Made by a program: the position numbers and the translations under genes
Shown here: positions 2,428 to 12,247 of the stretch, piece by piece
Layout: every line of letters starts with the position of its first letter
Position numbering within the stretch: the stretch's first letter is position 1
Assembly (NCBI GenBank): GCA_047611885.1
Contig: JBLFWT010000001.1
Location: forward strand, 1 to 36,097
DNA: 36,097 bases
Source of the DNA: Candidatus Saccharimonadales bacterium
Lineage (GTDB): Bacteria > Patescibacteriota > Saccharimonadia > Saccharimonadales > SZUA-47
Direction of reading: 5' to 3'
The notes under the pieces: generated by a model
The model's database searches: none
Told to the model about the DNA's origin: nothing
Seen by the model: only the letters and a program-made list of their open reading frames with translations

Positions 2428-4515
2428 ATGGCAGACAAGAAAACAGCAATGAAAGACATTAGAAATATCGGAATTATCGCGCATATTGACGCTGGTAAGA
2501 CTACAACTACTGAGGGTATTTTGTACCGTACAGGGCTAAACCACAAGATTGGTGCAGTTCATGATGGCGAAACTACTACTGACTGGATGGATCAGGAGCG
2601 TGAGCGTGGCATTACTATCGTGTCTGCTGCTGTAACTTGTTATTGGAAGGGTCACCAGATCAACATTATCGATACACCGGGTCACATCGACTTTACTGTA
2701 GAGGTTGAACGATCTCTACGCGTCCTAGACGGTGCTGTAGTGGTATTCGACGGTAAGATGGGTGTAGAATCACAATCTGAGACAGTATGGCGTCAGGCTG
2801 ACAAGTACTCAGTGCCTCGTATATGTTTCATTAACAAAATCAACCAAACTGGTGGAGACTTCTACAAGTCACTTGATACTATCCACGCACGTCTAACTAA
2901 GGCTGCATTCCCTATACATATTCCTATTGGCTTCGAACAAGAAATTAACGGAATTGTTGACCTAGTTTCAATGAAGTCGTATACATATAAAGATTTCATG
3001 GACTCAGAACTGGTTGTAGGCGAAATACCTGAAGATATGATGGAAAAAGTTAATCGTTACCGAAGCCTACTTATTGAAAACGCTGTTGCTGAAGATGAAG
3101 AAATGCTTGAGAAGTACCTAGAAGTAGGCGAAGAAGGCATGACCGAGGACGACGTACGTGAGGCTATACGGCGTGCGACTCTAGGCGGTAAATTCTACGC
3201 TGTAACTGGTGGAGATGGCCGTGGAGTTATAGTAGAAAAGGTGCTAGACCTAGTGAACGAACTAATGCCTAGCCCAGAAGATCGTGGATCAACATGGGGA
3301 ACAGATGCAAAGTCTGGTGATAAACTAGAGCGTAAGCCTACAGAAGCTGAGCCTATGTCAGGACTAGCGTTCAAGATCACTACCGACCCATTCGTAGGTA
3401 AGTTAGCATATTTCAGAGTTTACTCGGGTAAGCTAACAGCTGGTTCATACGTATTGAACAGTTCAACGGGTGTTAAAGAACGTATCGGACGTATCGTTCG
3501 AATGCAAGCTGACAAGCGTGAAGAAGTATCAGAAGTTACTGCCGGAGACATAGCAGCTATAGTAGGGCTAAAAGCGACTACAACAGGTCACACACTAAGT
3601 GACGTTGCTAATCCAATCGTTCTAGAAAGTATTACATTCCCAGATCCTCCAGTTAGTATCGCTATCGAACCAAAAACTAAGTCAGACCAAGAGAAAATGG
3701 CGATTGCGCTGCAACGTCTTGCAGAAGAAGACCCAACATTCATTGTTCGTACAGATCCTGAAACTAGCCAAACCATTCTAAGAGGAATGGGTGAGCTACA
3801 CCTAGAAATCTTAGTAGATAGAATGAAGCGAGAATTCCAGGTAGAAGCGAACATCGGTGCACCACAAGTTGCCTACCGTGAAACTATCCGTAAGGATGAC
3901 GTTGAAATCCAAGGTAAGTTCATCAAGCAGTCCGGTGGACGTGGTCAGTATGGTGACGTATGGCTTAGACTTTCTCAGAACGAAGCTGGTAAAGGCTTTG
4001 AATTCATCAACAAGATCAAGGGTGGATCAATCCCTCAAGAATACATTAAGCCTGTACAACAGGGTATTATTGAAGCTATGAGCAACGGTGTACTAGCTGG
4101 TTACCCAGTAGTAGACATCACAGCAGTTCTATACGACGGCTCATACCACGATGTTGACTCTAACGAAATGGCGTTTAAAGTAGCGGGATCAATGGCTCTA
4201 CAAGCTGGTGTACGCGCCGCTAAGCCAGTAATACTAGAACCAGTCATGAAAGTAGTAGTTGTAACTCCTGAAGAGTTTATGGGCGACGTCATAGGGGATC
4301 TGAACTCTAAGAGAGGTCGAATCGAATCTATGGAAGACCTATCTGCAGGAACCAAGGAGATTACCGGATTTGTCCCACTAGGTGAAATGTTCGGATACAC
4401 AACAAACCTACGTTCAAGCACTCAAGGTAGAGCTAGTTCTTCAATGGAACTAGACCACTATGCAGACGTACCAAGTCACGTAGCTGAAGCAATCATAGCC
4501 AAAAACGCCAAGTAG
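2428..4515 (+). CDS. fusA: Elongation factor G
   Basis: 695 aa with AHIDAGKTTTTE, DTPGHIDF and a full five-domain length. An AAGGAA SD lies upstream. Confidence 0.98.
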   Translation: MADKKTAMKDIRNIGIIAHIDAGKTTTTEGILYRTGLNHKIGAVHDGETTTDWMDQERERGITIVSAAVTCYWKGHQINIIDTPGHIDFTVEVERSLRVLDGAVVVFDGKMGVESQSETVWRQADKYSVPRICFINKINQTGGDFYKSLDTIHARLTKAAFPIHIPIGFEQEINGIVDLVSMKSYTYKDFMDSELVVGEIPEDMMEKVNRYRSLLIENAVAEDEEMLEKYLEVGEEGMTEDDVREAIRRATLGGKFYAVTGGDGRGVIVEKVLDLVNELMPSPEDRGSTWGTDAKSGDKLERKPTEAEPMSGLAFKITTDPFVGKLAYFRVYSGKLTAGSYVLNSSTGVKERIGRIVRMQADKREEVSEVTAGDIAAIVGLKATTTGHTLSDVANPIVLESITFPDPPVSIAIEPKTKSDQEKMAIALQRLAEEDPTFIVRTDPETSQTILRGMGELHLEILVDRMKREFQVEANIGAPQVAYRETIRKDDVEIQGKFIKQSGGRGQYGDVWLRLSQNEAGKGFEFINKIKGGSIPQEYIKPVQQGIIEAMSNGVLAGYPVVDITAVLYDGSYHDVDSNEMAFKVAGSMALQAGVRAAKPVILEPVMKVVVVTPEEFMGDVIGDLNSKRGRIESMEDLSAGTKEITGFVPLGEMFGYTTNLRSSTQGRASSSMELDHYADVPSHVAEAIIAKNAK

Positions 4516-4527
4516 ATCTAAGTAAAA

Positions 4528-5079
4528 ATGCTAGACATATGCCGTGTCCAGAGGGTAGGAATCTCGGATTTAGTACCAGAGCATCTTCGGGTGATTAGCG
4601 AGATAGGATTTCTAGAAGTTCATCACGAAGGTTACAAAGGTTCTGTACCGCAGGCTTTAACGGAAGCTTTAGTGGCTGATCAACAAGACATCATGAAACT
4701 CAGAGAAGGTGACTACTACAGAAATGCTCCGTCCGATTGGCACACGGATGGAGGAAACGAGTGTACTGTAAATATTCATGAAACTAAATCAGGCATCAGT
4801 ATTGTCTTGCTTGCAGTAGCTGTAGACCCGATCATGACCCAAGCAAAATACGCAGACCTAACCTTCACGGACATTATGGCGCGCGCCGAAGAGTTGACCA
4901 GGAGTGGCCAAATAGTTCCTGGATTATCTCTAGGCTTCTCAAGAAGAAACTCTACGCTGCTTTGGAGACAACAACGAAGCGAAGAAGAACCAGCCGACAT
5001 AGCACATGCAGTAACACAAGGAAAAAAGCCAAGGCACTCAGTTATCAGTGAACTAGTTCTAAAAGAATGGCCTAGCTAG
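4528..5079 (+). CDS. Hypothetical protein, candidate small 2OG-Fe(II) oxygenase (P4H-like double-stranded beta-helix)
   Basis: 183-aa ORF starting 13 nt after fusA with no obvious SD. It has W71-H72-T73-D74 (HxD), a hydrophobic strand ISIVLLAVA, IVPGLSLGF...STLLW, then H160 and R169 nine residues later (AHAVTQGKKPRHSVI). That order matches the HxD...H...R pattern of prolyl-hydroxylase-like oxygenases. The function is recognised by eye only. Confidence 0.5.
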   Translation: MLDICRVQRVGISDLVPEHLRVISEIGFLEVHHEGYKGSVPQALTEALVADQQDIMKLREGDYYRNAPSDWHTDGGNECTVNIHETKSGISIVLLAVAVDPIMTQAKYADLTFTDIMARAEELTRSGQIVPGLSLGFSRRNSTLLWRQQRSEEEPADIAHAVTQGKKPRHSVISELVLKEWPS

Positions 5080-5111
5080 CAGCTACAATTACTAAAGCTA
5101 TACATTTACAC

Positions 5112-5140
5112 TTGATGAGACAGAACAAATAGAATATAAT
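5112..5140 (+). promoter_or_regulatory. Sigma-70-type promoter for tuf
   Basis: TTGATG, a 17-nt spacer, then TATAAT, in an AT-rich 250-nt spacer. It implies a 5' UTR of about 180 nt. Confidence 0.6.
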
Positions 5141-5329
5141 CATAGTTGTATCTCGCGTGAGGGCTTTTGCTATGTATGTCAAATTACGAACTGCAAATAT
5201 GGATCGCGATAAACAATATATAATTCATTAAACCCTTAAAAAGTGACTAGCAATCACACAAAATAAGTAGCATTTGAGGATATTCTATCTACAAATAGTT
5301 ACTAAAATTTCGGAAAGGAAATTTTTAAT

Positions 5330-6514
5330 ATGGCAGATTTTGACAGAAGCAAACCGCACGTCAACGTCGGAACTATGGGGCACGTTGACCATGGTAAGAC
5401 AACATTAACAGCAGCTATTACAGCTGTACTATCAAAGAAGCTTCCAAGTGATGTAAACAAATCAGTAAACTACGACGAGATCGACAACGCTCCAGAAGAA
5501 AAAGCACGTGGTATAACCATTGCTACTTCTCATCAAGAGTACGAATCAGAACTACGTCACTACGCACACGTTGACATGCCAGGACACGCGGACTATGTTA
5601 AAAACATGATCACAGGTGCTGCACAGGTTGATGGTGCTGTATTGGTTGTATCTGCAGCTGATGGCCCTATGCCACAGACACGTGAGCACGTTCTACTTGC
5701 TAAGCAAGTTGGTGTTCCAAAAATCGTTGTATTCCTTAACAAAATGGATATGGCTGATGAAGAACTAGTTGAACTAGTTGAAATGGATGTACGTGAACTA
5801 CTTTCTAAGTACGACTACGATGGTGATAACGCTCCGATTATCAAGGGCTCAGCTCTAAAGGCAATCGAAGGCGACCCAGCATATGAAGACGCAGTAATGG
5901 AACTAGTTAAGGCTATGGACGAGTATATCGAAGAGCCAAAGCGTGAGCTAGACAAAGACTTCCTAATGCCAGTTGAAGACGTTTTCTCTATCAAGGGGCG
6001 TGGAACTGTAGCTACAGGGCGTATTGAATCAGGTGTTGTTAACGTAAACGACGAAATCGAAATCGTTGGTATCAGAGACACTCAAAAATCAGTTGTAACA
6101 GGTATTGAAGCATTCAAGAAATCTCTTGACCGTGGACAAGCTGGTGATAATGCAGGAATTCTACTACGTGGAATTGAGCGCGATGACATCGAACGTGGAC
6201 AGGTATTGGCTAAGCCAGGAACTGTTAACCCACACACAGAGTTTGACGCAGAAGTGTATATCCTTACAAAAGAAGAAGGTGGACGACACACTCCTTTCTT
6301 CAAGGGTTACAAGCCACAGTTTTACTTCCGTACTACGGATGTAACAGGTGAAGTAGAACTTCCAGCTGACAAAGAAATGGTTATGCCAGGTGACACAATC
6401 ACTTTCAAGGTGACATTGCAGTCTGCGATCGCTATGGATCAAGGTCTACGTTTTGCTATCCGTGAAGGTGGACGCACAGTTGGTGCAGGTGTTGTTACTA
6501 AAATTACTAAATAG
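5330..6514 (+). CDS. tuf: Elongation factor Tu
   Basis: 394 aa with [25 protein letters not shown] and switch-[26 protein letters not shown] lies upstream. Confidence 0.98.
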
Positions 6515-7170: not shown

Positions 7171-7509
7171 ATGCTTATGGCTAAAAAAACACGCAAAACT
7201 AATCTATCCAAGTCCAAGAAGACTTCTAAGGCCAAGAGACCTGCGAAAAAGATAGCTTCTATAATCGGTATAGAACCGGATTCGGTATTTTTTTTAAAGA
7301 TAGTCATTTTCCTTATCCTAGGAACGCAGTGGATATATATTGAATCGCTACCTAATTGGCAAGCACCCATTCCAGTAGGACTAATCCTGGGTCTAGTTTT
7401 CGCAACTCACGAGCATTTCCAAATAGACAGAAAAATAGAATATGCAGTACTATTAGTCGCAACATTCATAGCTTTCTGGCTACCAATCGGTATAACTATC
7501 TCGGTTTAG
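7171..7509 (+). CDS. Hypothetical small membrane protein (basic N-terminus, about 3 TM helices)
   Basis: 112-aa ORF with a K/R-rich N-terminus (AKKTRKTNLSKSKKTSKAKRPAKK) followed by three hydrophobic segments. The likelier start is the ATG at 7177, which lies 6 nt after a TAGAAT -10 box (7165-7170) and so may be leaderless. I recognise no family. Confidence 0.55.
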   Translation: MLMAKKTRKTNLSKSKKTSKAKRPAKKIASIIGIEPDSVFFLKIVIFLILGTQWIYIESLPNWQAPIPVGLILGLVFATHEHFQIDRKIEYAVLLVATFIAFWLPIGITISV

Positions 7510-7545: not shown

Positions 7546-8097
7546 ATGGATAAATTGAATAAATCTATGATCACAGAACCTGGATTCCACGGTGCAAAAA
7601 GGTTCATACCCAGTGCGCTGATTATTACATTCGTAGCAATAGGAACATTTTTTATACCTGAAGCAGATGATACTACTGTAGCTAATCGGCAAATGACAGA
7701 AGATCAGGCAGATAATGAGCTGCATTGGCAGCATGTGCATGCTATTAGAACACAGTCAAGTATAGAGGGGGCGTATAAAATGCAATTTATGTCTTCAATA
7801 TATACCGATCCTATAGAAGTTGTGGATGAACATGATGGTAGTTATATTCGAACCATAAGTCAGGTATCTCAACCATGTTTGTTGAATGAGTATAATATCG
7901 ATTCCCCAGAAGTGAACATACATGAATCTCCAAGCGGTGATCAGGCTAGAATAGTAAGCTCTATAGGGGAGCCAACACTAAATTTTGAGTTGTTAGCTGG
8001 AATATTTGTAGCCATTGACGAAGTGACTGAACGTACACTGAAGCGCAACTTATGCAACAATGATTTAGGGAGCACAGCATTAGCATTAGCCGAGTAG
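7546..8097 (+). CDS. Hypothetical membrane-anchored protein (one N-terminal TM helix plus a soluble domain)
   Basis: 183-aa ORF with TM segment IPSALIITFVAIGTFFI. The C-terminal VNIHESPSGDQARIVSSIGEP stretch faintly resembles a bacterial SH3 strand pattern. There is no SD and I recognise no family. Confidence 0.5.
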   Translation: MDKLNKSMITEPGFHGAKRFIPSALIITFVAIGTFFIPEADDTTVANRQMTEDQADNELHWQHVHAIRTQSSIEGAYKMQFMSSIYTDPIEVVDEHDGSYIRTISQVSQPCLLNEYNIDSPEVNIHESPSGDQARIVSSIGEPTLNFELLAGIFVAIDEVTERTLKRNLCNNDLGSTALALAE

Positions 8098-8119
8098 TCA
8101 TTGTAGAATTGTCTACATG

Positions 8120-8149
8120 TTGACTTCTTAGAGCAACTCGTGCTAAGAT
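8120..8149 (+). promoter_or_regulatory. Promoter for the rplC...rplO unit
   Basis: TTGACT, an 18-nt spacer, then TGcTAAGAT (a -35 box plus an extended -10). Confidence 0.5.
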
Positions 8150-8164
8150 GTAAGTCAATCGCTT

Positions 8165-8222
8165 ATCTTGGTGAATTTGTAAGTCCCGTAACAGGGATAC
8201 TACATATCACCGAGATTTTTTA
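8165..8222 (+). promoter_or_regulatory. Leader hairpin plus U-run upstream of rplC (candidate L4-type attenuator)
   Basis: A long imperfect hairpin with base ATCTTGGTGA / TCACCGAGAT and apex GTCCC-GTAACA-GGGAT is followed immediately by TTTTTTAT. It lies 75 nt before the rplC ATG. Confidence 0.4.
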
Positions 8223-8297
8223 TGTCAAAGACATACCCGCGATATCGATATCACAAAATTAAACGAAAGGTTCAGGGCGAAAGTCCGGAATATCACT

Positions 8298-8918
8298 ATG
8301 AAAGCACTCATCACGAGAAAACTCGGCATGACTAGTACCATCTTAGAAGACGGTACAGTTGAAGCCGTAACACTGCTTTCCGCTAGTCCTTGTGTAATCA
8401 CACAAGTCAAAGACACTGATACAGATGGCTATAAGGCTGTCCAGGTAGGATTTGAAGAGGCTAAGCGGGTAAATAAGCCACAAGTAAATCACTTCAAGGA
8501 CTCAAAGGCACTCCCAAGAGTCGTACGAGAATTCAGAACAGAATCAATCGATCTACCAGAAGACCTCACTGTCGGCAGCAAGCTTACAGCAGAGGTTTTT
8601 TCAATTGGTGACGTTGTAGACGTAGTTGGAACAAGCAAAGGTAAGGGCTTCGCTGGTACTATCAAGCGACACAACTTCCATAGACAACGTGAGACGCACG
8701 GTGGAAATGGTGCTACAAGAAAGCCAGGTTCAATCGGATCTATGTACCCACAGAAAATTTTCAAGGGCAAGAAGATGGCCGGACGTATGGGTGCAGACAG
8801 AGTTACAGTTAAGAACCTAAAGATCGCGATTGTAGACGCTGAAAAAGGAATTATCGCAGTTACAGGCGCTGTTCCAGGGCCTCGCAAAAGCATCGTTCTA
8901 GTGAAGGGAGTCCTATAA
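8298..8918 (+). CDS. rplC: 50S ribosomal protein L3
   Basis: 206 aa with KGKGFAGTIKRHNF. Confidence 0.97.
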   Translation: MKALITRKLGMTSTILEDGTVEAVTLLSASPCVITQVKDTDTDGYKAVQVGFEEAKRVNKPQVNHFKDSKALPRVVREFRTESIDLPEDLTVGSKLTAEVFSIGDVVDVVGTSKGKGFAGTIKRHNFHRQRETHGGNGATRKPGSIGSMYPQKIFKGKKMAGRMGADRVTVKNLKIAIVDAEKGIIAVTGAVPGPRKSIVLVKGVL

Positions 8919-9706
8919 TGGCTATCGCAACTTACACAAAAGCAGGAGCTAAAGCTACTGTTGCAGCGAAGCTTGATAAAAGCGTTTTCGAAGTAGAGGC
9001 AAAGAACCACGAACTACTAAAGCAGGCTTACCATACATACCTAGCTAACGGCAGAGAGAACCTTTCTAAGACTCTACGCCGCGGTGAAGTACGTGGTGGT
9101 GGTAAAAAGCCTTGGAAGCAAAAGGGTACAGGACGTGCTCGTTTCGGTTCCATCCGTGTCCCAATATGGCGTGGTGGTGGTATCACTTTCGGCCCACTAG
9201 GTATCGAAAACTACTCAAAGAAGCTAAACGGCCCTGCTAAGCGAACTGCTATCAGACAGGCACTAACTCTTAAGTCTCAAGCTGGCGGCATCATTGTTAT
9301 AGACGATATCCAGGTAAAGGACGGCAAAACCAGTGCTGCTATAGCTCTACTGAAGAAGATTGGTGCGAATGGACGTGTACTCATAGCTGTTGAAAACAAA
9401 ACACCGGAACTAGTCCGCGCGTTTAATAACATACAGAAGACTGACATAACCCAAGCTTCCTACCTGAATACTTACTCTATTATGAACGCAGATACTTTGA
9501 TCATAACAACTAAAGCACTAGATCGCGTTCACGAGTGGTTAAGCAAGAAGAGCGTATCCGCTAAGTCAGATGCTAAAGCAAGTGTTAAACCTGCTACAAA
9601 GACTGCTACAAAGTCTGCGACTAAGTCTGCTGCAAAGTCTGCTGCAAAGCCAGTAACTAAAACTGCTGCAAAAACAGCTTCTAAGGCCAAGGAGGGCACT
9701 AAATAA
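8918..9706 (+). CDS. rplD: 50S ribosomal protein L4 with a roughly 55-aa K/A/T-rich C-terminal tail
   Basis: 262 aa with GGGKKPWKQKGTGRARFGS. The tail reads ATKTATKSATKSAAKSAAKPVTKTAAKTASKAK. It has a TAATG overlap with rplC. Confidence 0.97.
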   Translation: MAIATYTKAGAKATVAAKLDKSVFEVEAKNHELLKQAYHTYLANGRENLSKTLRRGEVRGGGKKPWKQKGTGRARFGSIRVPIWRGGGITFGPLGIENYSKKLNGPAKRTAIRQALTLKSQAGGIIVIDDIQVKDGKTSAAIALLKKIGANGRVLIAVENKTPELVRAFNNIQKTDITQASYLNTYSIMNADTLIITTKALDRVHEWLSKKSVSAKSDAKASVKPATKTATKSATKSAAKSAAKPVTKTAAKTASKAKEGTK

Positions 9707-10083
9707 TGAGTGCTATTACACTTAAGCCACGAATGAGCGAAAAATCTTATGCGATGAGCGATACAGGAGTCTACGTATTCGATATAGATCCTAGATACAA
9801 CAAGCATGAGATATCAGATGCTATCCAGTCCACATACGAAGTTACAGTCGTCAATATCCGTACTATCACTGTTAAGGGTAAAGTTAAAAGACTATACCGA
9901 AACCGACGTTACGAAACAGGGTCTAGAGCAACCTACAAGAAGGCGTATGTAACGCTAAAAGAAGGCGATGCTATACCTATATTTGCAGCTGTAGAAGAAC
10001 AACAGGAAAAAGCTGATAAAACAGCTAAACTAGTTGAAAAGTCCGCTGAGAAAAAAGCTAAAAAAGAGAAGAAGGATAAATAG
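9706..10083 (+). CDS. rplW: 50S ribosomal protein L23
   Basis: 125 aa in the canonical position between L4 and L2, with a Lys-rich tail. Confidence 0.93.
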   Translation: MSAITLKPRMSEKSYAMSDTGVYVFDIDPRYNKHEISDAIQSTYEVTVVNIRTITVKGKVKRLYRNRRYETGSRATYKKAYVTLKEGDAIPIFAAVEEQQEKADKTAKLVEKSAEKKAKKEKKDK

Positions 10084-10085
10084 TC

Positions 10086-10943
10086 ATGGCAGTAAAACTA
10101 TATAAACCAACTACTCCTGGCCGCAGAGGCATGACAACTCGTGATTTCTCTGAGATCACGACAAGTAAGCCGCTAAAAAGCCTACTAGTAACGAAGAAAA
10201 TTACTGCTGGTAGAAACAACAAAGGTAGAATTACCACTAGACATAAGGGTGGTGGCGTAAAACGGCACATCCGTAACCTGAACTTCAACCTAGCCGCAGG
10301 AACAGTAGCAACAATCGAACAGATAGAATACGATCCAGGTCGAAGTGCTAACATTGCTCGTATCAAAGACCAAGAGGGTGAGTTCCACTACATACTTGCT
10401 GCTAAGGGCATGAAAAAGGGAATGAAGATTGAATCAGGCGCTGAAGCTCCAGTATCTGTAGGTAACAGACTTCCTCTTAACAAGATCCCTGCAGGTTCAG
10501 TTATACACGCTATAGAGCTAACATCCGGTAGGGGCGCTCAAATGGTACGATCAGCTGGTAACAGCGCGCAGTTAATTGCTAAAGAGGATGACTACTGTCA
10601 AGTAAGACTACCTAGTGGTGAAGTACGTAAAGTATTATCTAACTGCATGGCTAGCATCGGTAACCTTGGAAACGAACAACACCAGAACGTTAAGTACGGT
10701 AAGGCTGGTCGAAAACGACTTATGGGAATCAGGCCTTCAGTACGTGGTGTAGTTATGAACGCAGCAGACCACCCGCACGGTGGTGGTGATGGTGGTAGAC
10801 ACGGAATCGGTGGTGGAGTTAACCATGGATCAGCTCCAAGAACACCTTGGGGACAGAAGACCCTTGGTTACAAGACACGTAGCCGTTCAAAGACAAGTAA
10901 TAAATTCATCGTGAAATCACGTCATGAAGCGAAGAGGAAGTAA
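10086..10943 (+). CDS. rplB: 50S ribosomal protein L2
   Basis: 285 aa with [19 protein letters not shown] and HPHGGGDG. Confidence 0.98.
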
Positions 10944-10951
10944 GGGATTAT

Positions 10952-11218
10952 ATGTCTAGATCATTAAAAAAAGGTCCATTTATAGATCCAAAGCTAGCTA
11001 AGAAAGTAGCAGCTCTGGCTAAAGAAGACCGTACAATTATAAAAACTTGGGCTCGTGCATGTACAATTCCTCCGGAATTTGTGGGTCGCACAATAGCCGT
11101 TCACAATGGTAAAGTTCACGTTCCAGTATTCGTTACTGAAAACATGGTCGGCCACAAGCTAGGTGAGTTCTCACCAACACGTAAATTCCGTCGACACGGT
11201 GGAAAGATGGCTAAATAA
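10952..11218 (+). CDS. rpsS: 30S ribosomal protein S19
   Basis: 88 aa with [25 protein letters not shown]. Confidence 0.98.
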
Positions 11219-11220
11219 TC

Positions 11221-11616
11221 ATGAGTAAACCAGTACTATCACTAGCTAAGGGAGTTTCACACAGCCCACGTAAGGTTTCAGAAGTAGCTTCTCTAGTTCG
11301 CAACCGAAGCGTGTCAGATGCTTTAACTATCCTAGAACACACACCGCGTCGTTCTGCTATTGCTGTATATAAAGCAATTGCCAGCGCAAGAGCTAACGCT
11401 GAACACAACCACAACTTCAAACCAGACACGCTACATATTACTGAAATTACTGTTACTGCAGGACCTAGAATCAAACGATTCCGACCAGCAGCTCACGGTA
11501 GAGCACTACCTTTCCAGCGTAAAACTTCTCACATTCGAGTTATTGTAGACGGCGAACAGCGTCAGAAAAAGACTAAAACAGCTGAAAAACCAGCAGTAAA
11601 GAAGGAAGGTAAATAA
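11221..11616 (+). CDS. rplV: 50S ribosomal protein L22
   Basis: 131 aa in the canonical position, with an L22-like core and a K-rich tail. Confidence 0.93.
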   Translation: MSKPVLSLAKGVSHSPRKVSEVASLVRNRSVSDALTILEHTPRRSAIAVYKAIASARANAEHNHNFKPDTLHITEITVTAGPRIKRFRPAAHGRALPFQRKTSHIRVIVDGEQRQKKTKTAEKPAVKKEGK

Positions 11617-11617
11617 T

Positions 11618-12247
11618 ATGGGCCAAAAAGTAAACCCAATTAGCATGCGCCTTCAGGTCAATAAGAACTGGCGTAGCAAGTGGTTTGCCAGTAAGCGAGA
11701 CTTCGCGTCTAAGCTGACTGACGACCTGAAAGTACGTAAACTTATAGATAAGAAAACTGGTACTCGTGCAGCTATCAACAAGGTAGAGATTGAACGTTCA
11801 CCAAACCAAGTTACTATAACTATCCAAACCGGTAAAGCCGGTGTAGTTATCGGTAGAGGTGGTTCTGGTGTCAACGAAATCAAAGCCGAAGCAGAGAAGA
11901 TTTACGACACACCTGTTAGAATCAACATCGAAGAAATCAAGAAGGCTGAGTTATTTGCTAAGCTAGTAGCTGAAAACATCGCTAACTCTATCGAACGCAG
12001 AATCGCTTTCCGTAGAGCTATCAAGCAAGCAAGTGCAGCTACAATGCGCTCAGGTGCCAAAGGTATTCGTATCGAAGTAGCTGGTCGTCTTAACGGAGCC
12101 GAAATGTCCCGTAAAGAAAAAGAAGTTCAAGGAAGCGTTCCACTACATACAATCCGTGCAGACGTAGATTACGCTCATGCAGGAGCACAAACACCTGCTG
12201 GAGTTATCGGTGTCAAAGTATGGATCTATAAAGGGGAGGCACTATAA
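11618..12247 (+). CDS. rpsC: 30S ribosomal protein S3
   Basis: 209 aa starting [12 protein letters not shown], with a KH-domain segment. Confidence 0.97.

Follow-up and report, generated by a model that had tools for sequence, protein, structure and literature searches.

What is encoded by a 183-amino-acid (aa) open reading frame (ORF) that lies between the genes for elongation factors G and Tu (EF-G and EF-Tu) in a Candidatus Saccharimonadales bacterium? The ORF occupies positions 4528-5079 of a stretch of 36,097 nucleotides (nt) from contig JBLFWT010000001.1, the whole of which is called the window below, and its protein is annotated as "hypothetical protein" in the metagenome-assembled genome. 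A first-pass annotation made from the sequence alone had read it as a 2-oxoglutarate (2OG)-Fe(II) oxygenase of the prolyl 4-hydroxylase/prolyl hydroxylase domain (P4H/PHD) type that could modify a translation factor. In our analysis the ORF proves to be a real accessory gene that codes for a protein and occurs only within a narrow Saccharimonadales clade. At present it is an intriguing, unproven orphan rather than a demonstrated translation-factor hydroxylase.

Coding status of the ORF

With a codon model that is frame-specific and was trained on 36 window genes, the ORF scored 0.25/0.25, as compared with 0.10-0.39 for the non-ribosomal genes of the window and at most 0.21 for antisense shadow ORFs. 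The GC1>GC2>GC3 pattern over the three codon positions and the G-rich first codon position likewise agree with real genes. A separate Logan assembly (L208) matches the window with 100% identity along 3464 nt and, because the same DNA was assembled independently, the ORF is not an assembly artefact. In two orthologues from other genomes the frame of about 180 codons stays open despite saturated synonymous sites. Nonsynonymous divergence (dN) of the ORF is 0.6-0.8, against 0.05-0.13 for fusA and tuf in the same genome pairs, and is well below the saturated synonymous divergence (dS). From the open frame, the saturated synonymous sites and these dN figures it follows that the ORF is a maintained gene evolving roughly ten times faster than its neighbours. 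Another protein, P0125, was considered as a close relative for dN/dS and set aside, its DNA being identical to the window. An RNA gene in place of a coding gene was also rejected, as the region contains no Rfam family.

In L208 the Logan gene call at 2303-2890 (window 4528-5115) continues past the TAG stop to a product of 195 aa (…WPS-Q-QLQLLKLYIYT). A genetic-code artefact of the gene caller is the probable cause; reassignment of the stop codon is disfavoured because fusA and other genes of the window end normally with TAG or TAA.

Homologues and invariant residues

A word-indexed search of 5.8 billion proteins with the sequence returned only the ORF protein itself, and a profile search added no member. 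Exhaustive phmmer searching of 1.84 billion representatives gave two homologues, P0002 (186 aa, 38% identity to the ORF) and P0003 (called as 148 aa, 33% identity), with overall identities among the three family members of 27-38%. Both are located between fusA and tuf, as is the ORF, bearing out the fusA-ORF-tuf synteny for which the first-pass annotation had proposed to look. EF-G of relatives is 82-89% identical to the fusA product of the window. A scan of JGI metagenomes with back-translated motifs found no family member, and tblastn against phages and plasmids gave no match, on which ground an origin of the ORF from a mobile element was rejected.

The three-way alignment of the family members leaves 37 of the 183 positions invariant. 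These include W71-H72-T73-D74, N82, H84, T86, G89 and T143-L144-x-W146, and towards the C-terminus A159-H160, G165, P168-R169-x-S171 and S174-E175. Four of seven His (H33, H72, H84 and H160), one of 11 Asp (D74) and two of 12 Arg (R119 and R169) are invariant, while no Lys, Tyr or Phe is. The four residues singled out beforehand as a putative Fe(II) triad and 2OG-binding Arg, namely H72, D74, H160 and R169, had all been numbered correctly and are unchanged in both homologues. Their joint invariance has a P of about 0.004 under residue-type-specific rates. Because all four were picked from one sequence and prove invariant, the alignment says that they probably matter for function. At the level of sequence, H72-T-D74 and H160 match the HX(D/E)...H triad pattern. 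R169 falls nine residues after H160 and S171 is invariant, which agrees with the pattern of a basic residue (Arg or Lys, often in RxS) that follows the distal His by about 9-11 residues and binds the C5 carboxylate of 2OG. Of the other landmarks pointed out at the start, YYRNAPSDWHTD begins at residue 63 of the ORF, IVPGLSLGF at 129 and STLLW at 142.

The P0003 locus (L082/L083) is regarded as full length because tblastn homology spans ORF residues 4-181 in a single frame. At this locus (L082 391-1151, the same in L083) there is no ATG, GTG or TTG for the conserved N-terminal 34 residues. An extra 69-aa ORF (391-600) is inserted between fusA and the orthologue; the orthologous frame opens at 576, overlapping the stop of the 69-aa ORF, and the gene caller placed the start at an internal TTG (705). 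This anomaly could stem from a start codon outside the canonical set, from coupling to the 69-aa ORF or from decay at an early stage. In L081 the orthologue follows fusA after an 8-nt spacer and has a GTG start.

Position of the gene and its neighbours

The ORF and the features around it, all on the + strand, are as follows.

2428..4515, + strand: fusA (EF-G, 695 aa), adjoining the ORF upstream; from the ORF list, the identical L208 locus carrying Pfam EF-G domains
4516..4527, + strand: fusA-ORF spacer of 12 nt, without Shine-Dalgarno sequence, promoter or terminator
4528..5079, + strand: 183-aa ORF, ATG start and TAG stop; member of a three-member orphan family
4738..4749, + strand: codons W71-H72-T73-D74, candidate HxD metal ligands, invariant in all three members
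5002..5040, + strand: codons A159-H160 to P168-R169-x-S171, candidate distal His and 2OG-binding RxS
5112..5140, + strand: sigma-70-like promoter for tuf, TTGATG-17-TATAAT, 10 of 12 matches; a -35/-10 pair at the same place in nine related loci
5152..5210, + strand: two-box element at the 5' end of the tuf transcript, bounding the ORF on its 3' side and outside it
5330..6514, + strand: tuf (EF-Tu, 394 aa), carrying the switch-I NAPEEK proline P55

The fusA stop ends at 4515 and the ATG of the ORF begins at the 13th base after it, so the coordinates first given for the ORF are confirmed. No promoter-like site was found between fusA and the ORF, and no + strand terminator after fusA or after the ORF. 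Nor was a Shine-Dalgarno sequence found before the ATG, unlike at rpsL, tuf, rpsJ and rplD. The ORF is probably co-transcribed with fusA. It does lie upstream of the tuf promoter, as first supposed, and the promoter at 5112-5140 marks the end of the fusA-ORF transcription unit.

Searches for family and fold

Scans of all three members against Pfam, NCBIfam, PADLOC and PHROGs at E up to 10 gave no relevant match. Searches of PDB with phmmer and profiles returned chance matches only: a SERK1 leucine-rich repeat (E 0.065), a Rieske protein and PrgE. The first of these concerns residues 12-55 of the ORF (nt 4561-4692), ISDLVPEHLRVISEIGFLEVHHEGYKGSVPQAL, which bear a weak likeness to one plant-type leucine-rich repeat and which in the exhaustive phmmer run also picked up P0004, a repeat protein of 2833 aa (E 2.8e-4); both resemblances were judged to be chance or low-complexity-like matches. 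An ADP-ribosyltransferase of the R-S-E or H-Y-E type was considered and rejected, there being no supporting match and no conserved Tyr or ExE.

Pairwise profile alignment with hhalign placed WHTD..ET of the family onto H99-x-D101 of E. coli TauD over 18 columns (P 0.035, probability 1.5%) and Y..WHTDG onto FHVDG of the YbiX family over 16 columns (P 0.05). Against AlkB hhalign found nothing, and against RoxA only an N-terminal stretch of 13 columns (probability 0.3%). A YbiX-query protein search yielded only matches at least 80% identical and was unusable as a diverse profile, and a viral-contig scan with the YbiX alignment gave nothing. The diverse P4H-type profile that was used comprised 15 sequences, YbiX and 14 annotated cyanophage and pelagiphage 2OG-Fe(II) oxygenases of 192-247 aa. 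Local, global and alternative hhalign alignments to it recovered only the Y..WHxD block (probability 0.9%, P 0.058). HMMER, too, aligned this block. By sequence the ORF product is not a detectable member of the PF13640, PF02668 or JmjC families.

Structure prediction with AlphaFold2 (AF2) from the single sequence reached a predicted local distance difference test score (pLDDT) of 30. The low-confidence AF2 strands run over residues 80-86, 89-95, 136-138, 143-149, 157-163 and 172-178, with a helix at 113-125. At this low confidence the order of the strands is compatible with a double-stranded beta-helix (DSBH) after the HxD, with H160 and the residues following R169 on the last two strands. Top Foldseek matches, also of low confidence, were alpha+beta and immunity-like folds.

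A tentative oxygenase mechanism

The HX(D/E)...H motif together with an eight-strand DSBH defines the 2OG-oxygenase superfamily (PMC4543633). The best single mechanism for the ORF, which we consider possible rather than probable, is that its product may be a minimal, highly divergent Fe(II)/2OG-oxygenase-like enzyme or pseudo-enzyme. The gene would be transcribed as the last cistron of an rpsL-rpsG-fusA unit and its translation, at a low level, would rely on coupling or on re-initiation past the fusA stop, a route we infer because there is no Shine-Dalgarno sequence and the start follows that stop by only 8-12 nt; tuf would be driven by its own promoter. Judging from the motifs, a 2-His-1-carboxylate Fe(II) site would be made up of H72-x-D74 and H160, and 2OG would be held at its C5 carboxylate by R169-x-S171. 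The scaffold would be small, beta-rich and jelly-roll-like, the predicted strands making up most of the jelly roll, with a putative helical insert at about residues 98-133 that contains the helix at 113-125. 2OG oxygenases commonly carry inserts at such a place. In favour of an oxygenase, the best local alignments to TauD and to the P4H-type YbiX/phage sequences each put WHTD on the iron-binding HxD.

A number of results weigh against this mechanism. Pfam, NCBIfam and PDB show no 2OG-oxygenase match at E up to 10, and the hhalign probabilities are just 0.9-1.5% over 16-19 columns. Scores from HMMER Forward compared with those of 2000 shuffles gave P 0.05-0.12 for the family, and an insertion-tolerant test of gap-free block chains gave P 0.31. 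The AF2 model from the 3-sequence alignment is poor (pLDDT 48, predicted template modelling score 0.42), and Foldseek searches with it against PDB and BFVD had a best E of 0.07-0.3 and template modelling scores of at most 0.25, with no DSBH among the top matches. Two of the invariant His, H33 and H84, have no role in a canonical site. At 88 residues, the spacing from HxD to the distal His exceeds that of PPHD (59) and of CrP4H (84) and calls for an insert. Sister genomes dispense with the gene. Saccharibacteria have a reduced, largely fermentative metabolism without a tricarboxylic acid cycle, and because of this a supply of 2OG and a use of O2 are not obvious. The profile and structure checks that the first-pass annotation had proposed brought no 2OG-oxygenase hit and no DSBH fold, the latter from a low-confidence model.

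Some of these negatives carry limited weight. AlkB, TauD and RoxA, run as positive controls against the P4H profile, did no better than shuffles (P 0.085-0.27; z at most 1.0), and the negative profile tests are weak because genuine 2OG oxygenases of other subfamilies fail them too; the tests therefore speak against the individual families and not against the superfamily as a whole. The negative searches in general are weak because the family has only three sequences.

Comparison with known systems

Among characterized enzymes, Pseudomonas PPHD (PDB 4IW3) is comparable in that it is a small bacterial protein of about 207 aa with an HxD...H arrangement and a basic residue about 9-10 residues after the distal His. 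Both have a link to the translation machinery, for the ORF one that is proposed. PPHD genes are not known to be embedded in the str operon. The iron site of PPHD is H124/D126/H183, and PPHD-type enzymes bind their substrates with two elements, a beta2/beta3 finger loop that precedes the HxD and, at the C-terminus, helix alpha4 beyond the last DSBH strand (PMC6235002). Sequence or profile similarity between PPHD and the ORF is not detectable, and the distance from HxD to His is 59 residues as against 88. Residues 24-79 of the ORF, the stretch leading up to the HxD, show little conservation and have a low-confidence model. The protein ends 14 residues after R169, its last predicted element being the strand at 172-178, so that it has no C-terminal helix.

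The phage P4H-type oxygenases and E. coli YbiX (PF13640) are of similar size (192-247 aa). Several of the phage proteins contain Y-x-WHxD and HRVxPVxxGxRxSLV, where the ORF has Y..WHTD and HAVTQGKKPRHSVI (H-A-V-T-Q-G-K-K-P-R-H-S-V-I); this likeness of the distal motif was spotted by eye and is without statistical support. The alignment covers only 16-19 columns at a probability of about 1% and P of about 0.05, and the GGEL block and FPS-x3-H spacing of these proteins are without a clear counterpart in the ORF. With PF13640, YbiX is matched at 55.6 bits, whereas no member of the ORF family is, up to an E of 10. TauD/TfdA (PF02668) shares the identical iron-ligand tetrapeptide WHTD, followed by (I)ET. 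However, TauD has 283 aa and about 155 residues from HxD to the distal His, the ORF product being 100 residues shorter; the match is local only and far from covering the TauD domain of roughly 270 residues, and PF02668 gives none to the ORF. RoxA/YcfD (JmjC_2, PF08007, with a winged-helix C-terminal domain) differs in that the ORF has no Pfam match. The ORF also resembles the orphan inserts of ribosomal and str operons in Saccharibacteria and other members of the Candidate Phyla Radiation (CPR), being restricted to a narrow clade, located in a variable spacer and dispensable. It differs from a typical featureless orphan in having compact invariant residues of catalytic type, predicted before any homologue had been seen.

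Distribution within the clade

A conserved 16-mer of the tuf leader was used to recover six further relatives (L114, L147, L153, L178, L193 and L200), whose EF-G and EF-Tu are 76-85% and 81-92% identical to those of the window. The fusA-tuf spacers of these and other relatives contain the following.

L114: spacer of 190 nt, no ORF
L178: spacer of 323 nt, + strand without any ORF of at least 45 aa
L147: unrelated 141-aa ORF
L153: small unrelated ORFs of 83-88 aa, no family member
L193: unrelated 210-aa ORF, multi-pass membrane-like
L002: unrelated 187-aa ORF and a NUDIX-like gene
L001: fusA not followed by tuf

When the family hidden Markov model was run with filters off (hmmsearch --max) on 14,577 six-frame ORFs of all fetched loci, only the three members matched. 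The ORFs in the same slot of other Saccharimonadales were rejected as remote homologues on the basis of this search and of hhalign against the L002 ORF. A short EF-G/EF-Tu tree, which is poorly resolved, has ORF-bearing and ORF-less genomes intermingled. On this basis the gene is taken to be old within the clade. It is dispensable, because in sister genomes the spacer lacks an ORF (L114, L178) or holds an unrelated one (L147, L193, L002). The frame is thus open in the two orthologues, and the gene is absent from these sister genomes. The pattern suggests that the fusA-tuf spacer, beside highly expressed genes, is a hot spot where unrelated small genes are repeatedly inserted and turned over.

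Alternative explanations

The invariant residues could instead belong to an unrelated fold with another metal-dependent activity, for example a small Zn/Mn hydrolase-type site using some of H33, H72, H84 and H160 plus D74, in which case the likeness to a 2OG motif would be coincidental. Four invariant His rather than two, and the lack of a DSBH signal in any profile or structure search, speak for such a fold. So does the estimate from residue frequencies that [FWY]HxD...Hx(8-11)Rx[ST] is expected by chance in roughly one in 500 proteins, given that the initial motif reading had scanned many ORFs. Yet no hydrolase or other family was matched, and R169-x-S171, nine residues after H160 on a predicted strand, fits a 2OG site whereas a generic metal site needs no such residues; we consider this explanation unlikely. 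The product could also be a non-catalytic, lineage-specific accessory protein with a role in host interaction, immunity or regulation, residing in a permissive, highly transcribed spacer, its conserved residues being structural. The spacer is indeed a hot spot of unrelated ORFs (L147, L193, L002) or empty (L114, L178), the gene evolves very fast by comparison with its neighbours and is patchily distributed within the clade, and the low-confidence Foldseek matches are alpha+beta and immunity-like. Such a protein would not be expected to hold its invariant His, Asp, Arg and Trp in short active-site-like motifs with no Lys, Tyr or Phe conserved, and neither a PADLOC defence model nor any phage or plasmid sequence was matched, leaving this too rather doubtful. 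That the ORF is non-functional or decaying, a remnant or spurious frame without a selected product, is very improbable. It has no Shine-Dalgarno sequence, the full-length frame in L082/L083 has no canonical start, and the gene is highly divergent and lost in several relatives, but the frame of about 180 codons is open in three lineages despite synonymous saturation, the invariant positions are clustered in motifs, dN is well below saturated dS and the codon statistics are gene-like.

The proposal from which the analysis began is a subset of the divergent oxygenase explanation, namely an oxygen-dependent P4H/PHD-type hydroxylase of EF-Tu, EF-G or a ribosomal protein co-expressed with EF-G. All of the evidence for an oxygenase applies to it as well, and the gene is the cistron after fusA in three genomes. 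There is precedent in PPHD, which hydroxylates P54 of EF-Tu, and YcfD/RoxA, which hydroxylates L16 (PMC4543633; PMC6235002). Membership of the P4H/PHD family did not emerge from PF13640, from the 15-sequence profile or from the C-terminus, where there is no room for the alpha4 helix that PPHD uses on EF-Tu. Relatives with 93-95% identical EF-Tu N-termini are without the gene. The NAPEEK proline P55 is present in the adjacent EF-Tu as the first-pass annotation had observed, and it carries no information because this proline is universal in EF-Tu. The link to translation is a weak one drawn from the position of the gene, and, since relatives have unrelated genes in this spacer, lying there is no guide to function. 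A hydroxylase of this type is quite unlikely in our estimate. More doubtful still is the fuller version in which a minimal divergent oxygenase, translationally coupled to EF-G, would hydroxylate EF-Tu, EF-G or a ribosomal protein and found a new subfamily that current profiles do not detect.

Saccharibacteria and other CPR bacteria are thought to have minimal oxygen-dependent chemistry. If the product is an oxygenase, it would be a new and very divergent variant, among the smallest 2OG oxygenases known and outside every current profile model, and it would offer a handle on O2 or 2OG sensing in episymbionts. Were translation factors its substrate, an ultra-small episymbiotic bacterium would possess a modifier of translation that senses oxygen and 2OG. 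If it is not an oxygenase, it is a CPR orphan with an unusually crisp invariant motif. In that case spacers in the core translation operons of the clade would still act as landing pads for fast-evolving lineage-specific genes, and short catalytic-looking motifs in orphan ORFs would call for structural or biochemical proof.

The tuf leader and other inserts in translation operons

Downstream of the ORF the two-box element of the window consists of CTCGCGTGAGGGCTTT (5152-5167), a variable hairpin and then AATATGGATCGCGA (5197-5210). Nine related loci share this tuf-leader layout: the window (5112-5210), L081 (2397-2597), L082 (1152-1480), L114, L147, L153, L178, L193 and L200. In each a -35/-10 promoter precedes, by about 10 nt, the invariant box CTCGCGTGAGGGCTTT; next come a hairpin whose length varies and the near-invariant box AATATGGAYCGCG (AATAAGGAGCGCG in L178). 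A 5-bp stem (UCGCG/CGCGA) can form between the two boxes; being invariant, it shows no covariation. No Rfam family matches the element, which could serve as a 5' leader that regulates or stabilises the tuf transcript or could be bound by a protein.

Two further unannotated ORFs are located on the + strand of the window between rpsJ and rplC in the S10 operon (7171-7509 and 7546-8097). One, of 112 aa and membrane-like, is kept after rpsJ in L153 and L193 (50-56% identity). For the other, of 183 aa, none of the fetched loci contains a homologue, and Pfam and NCBIfam give no match. In the more distant Saccharibacteria L004 and L041, rpsJ and rplC are adjacent. These ORFs, like that between fusA and tuf, show lineage-specific inserts in core translation operons of the clade.

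The closest full-length EF-G relative in the genome scan is that of L001, at 82% identity. Here (8089-12046) fusA is followed by shikimate-pathway-like ORFs on the opposite strand. Judged from their translations, they resemble a chorismate synthase, a dehydroquinase and a long fusion like EPSP-synthase/shikimate-kinase/shikimate-dehydrogenase. Genes of shikimate type would be unusual for a Saccharimonadales genome. The str operon is broken in L001.

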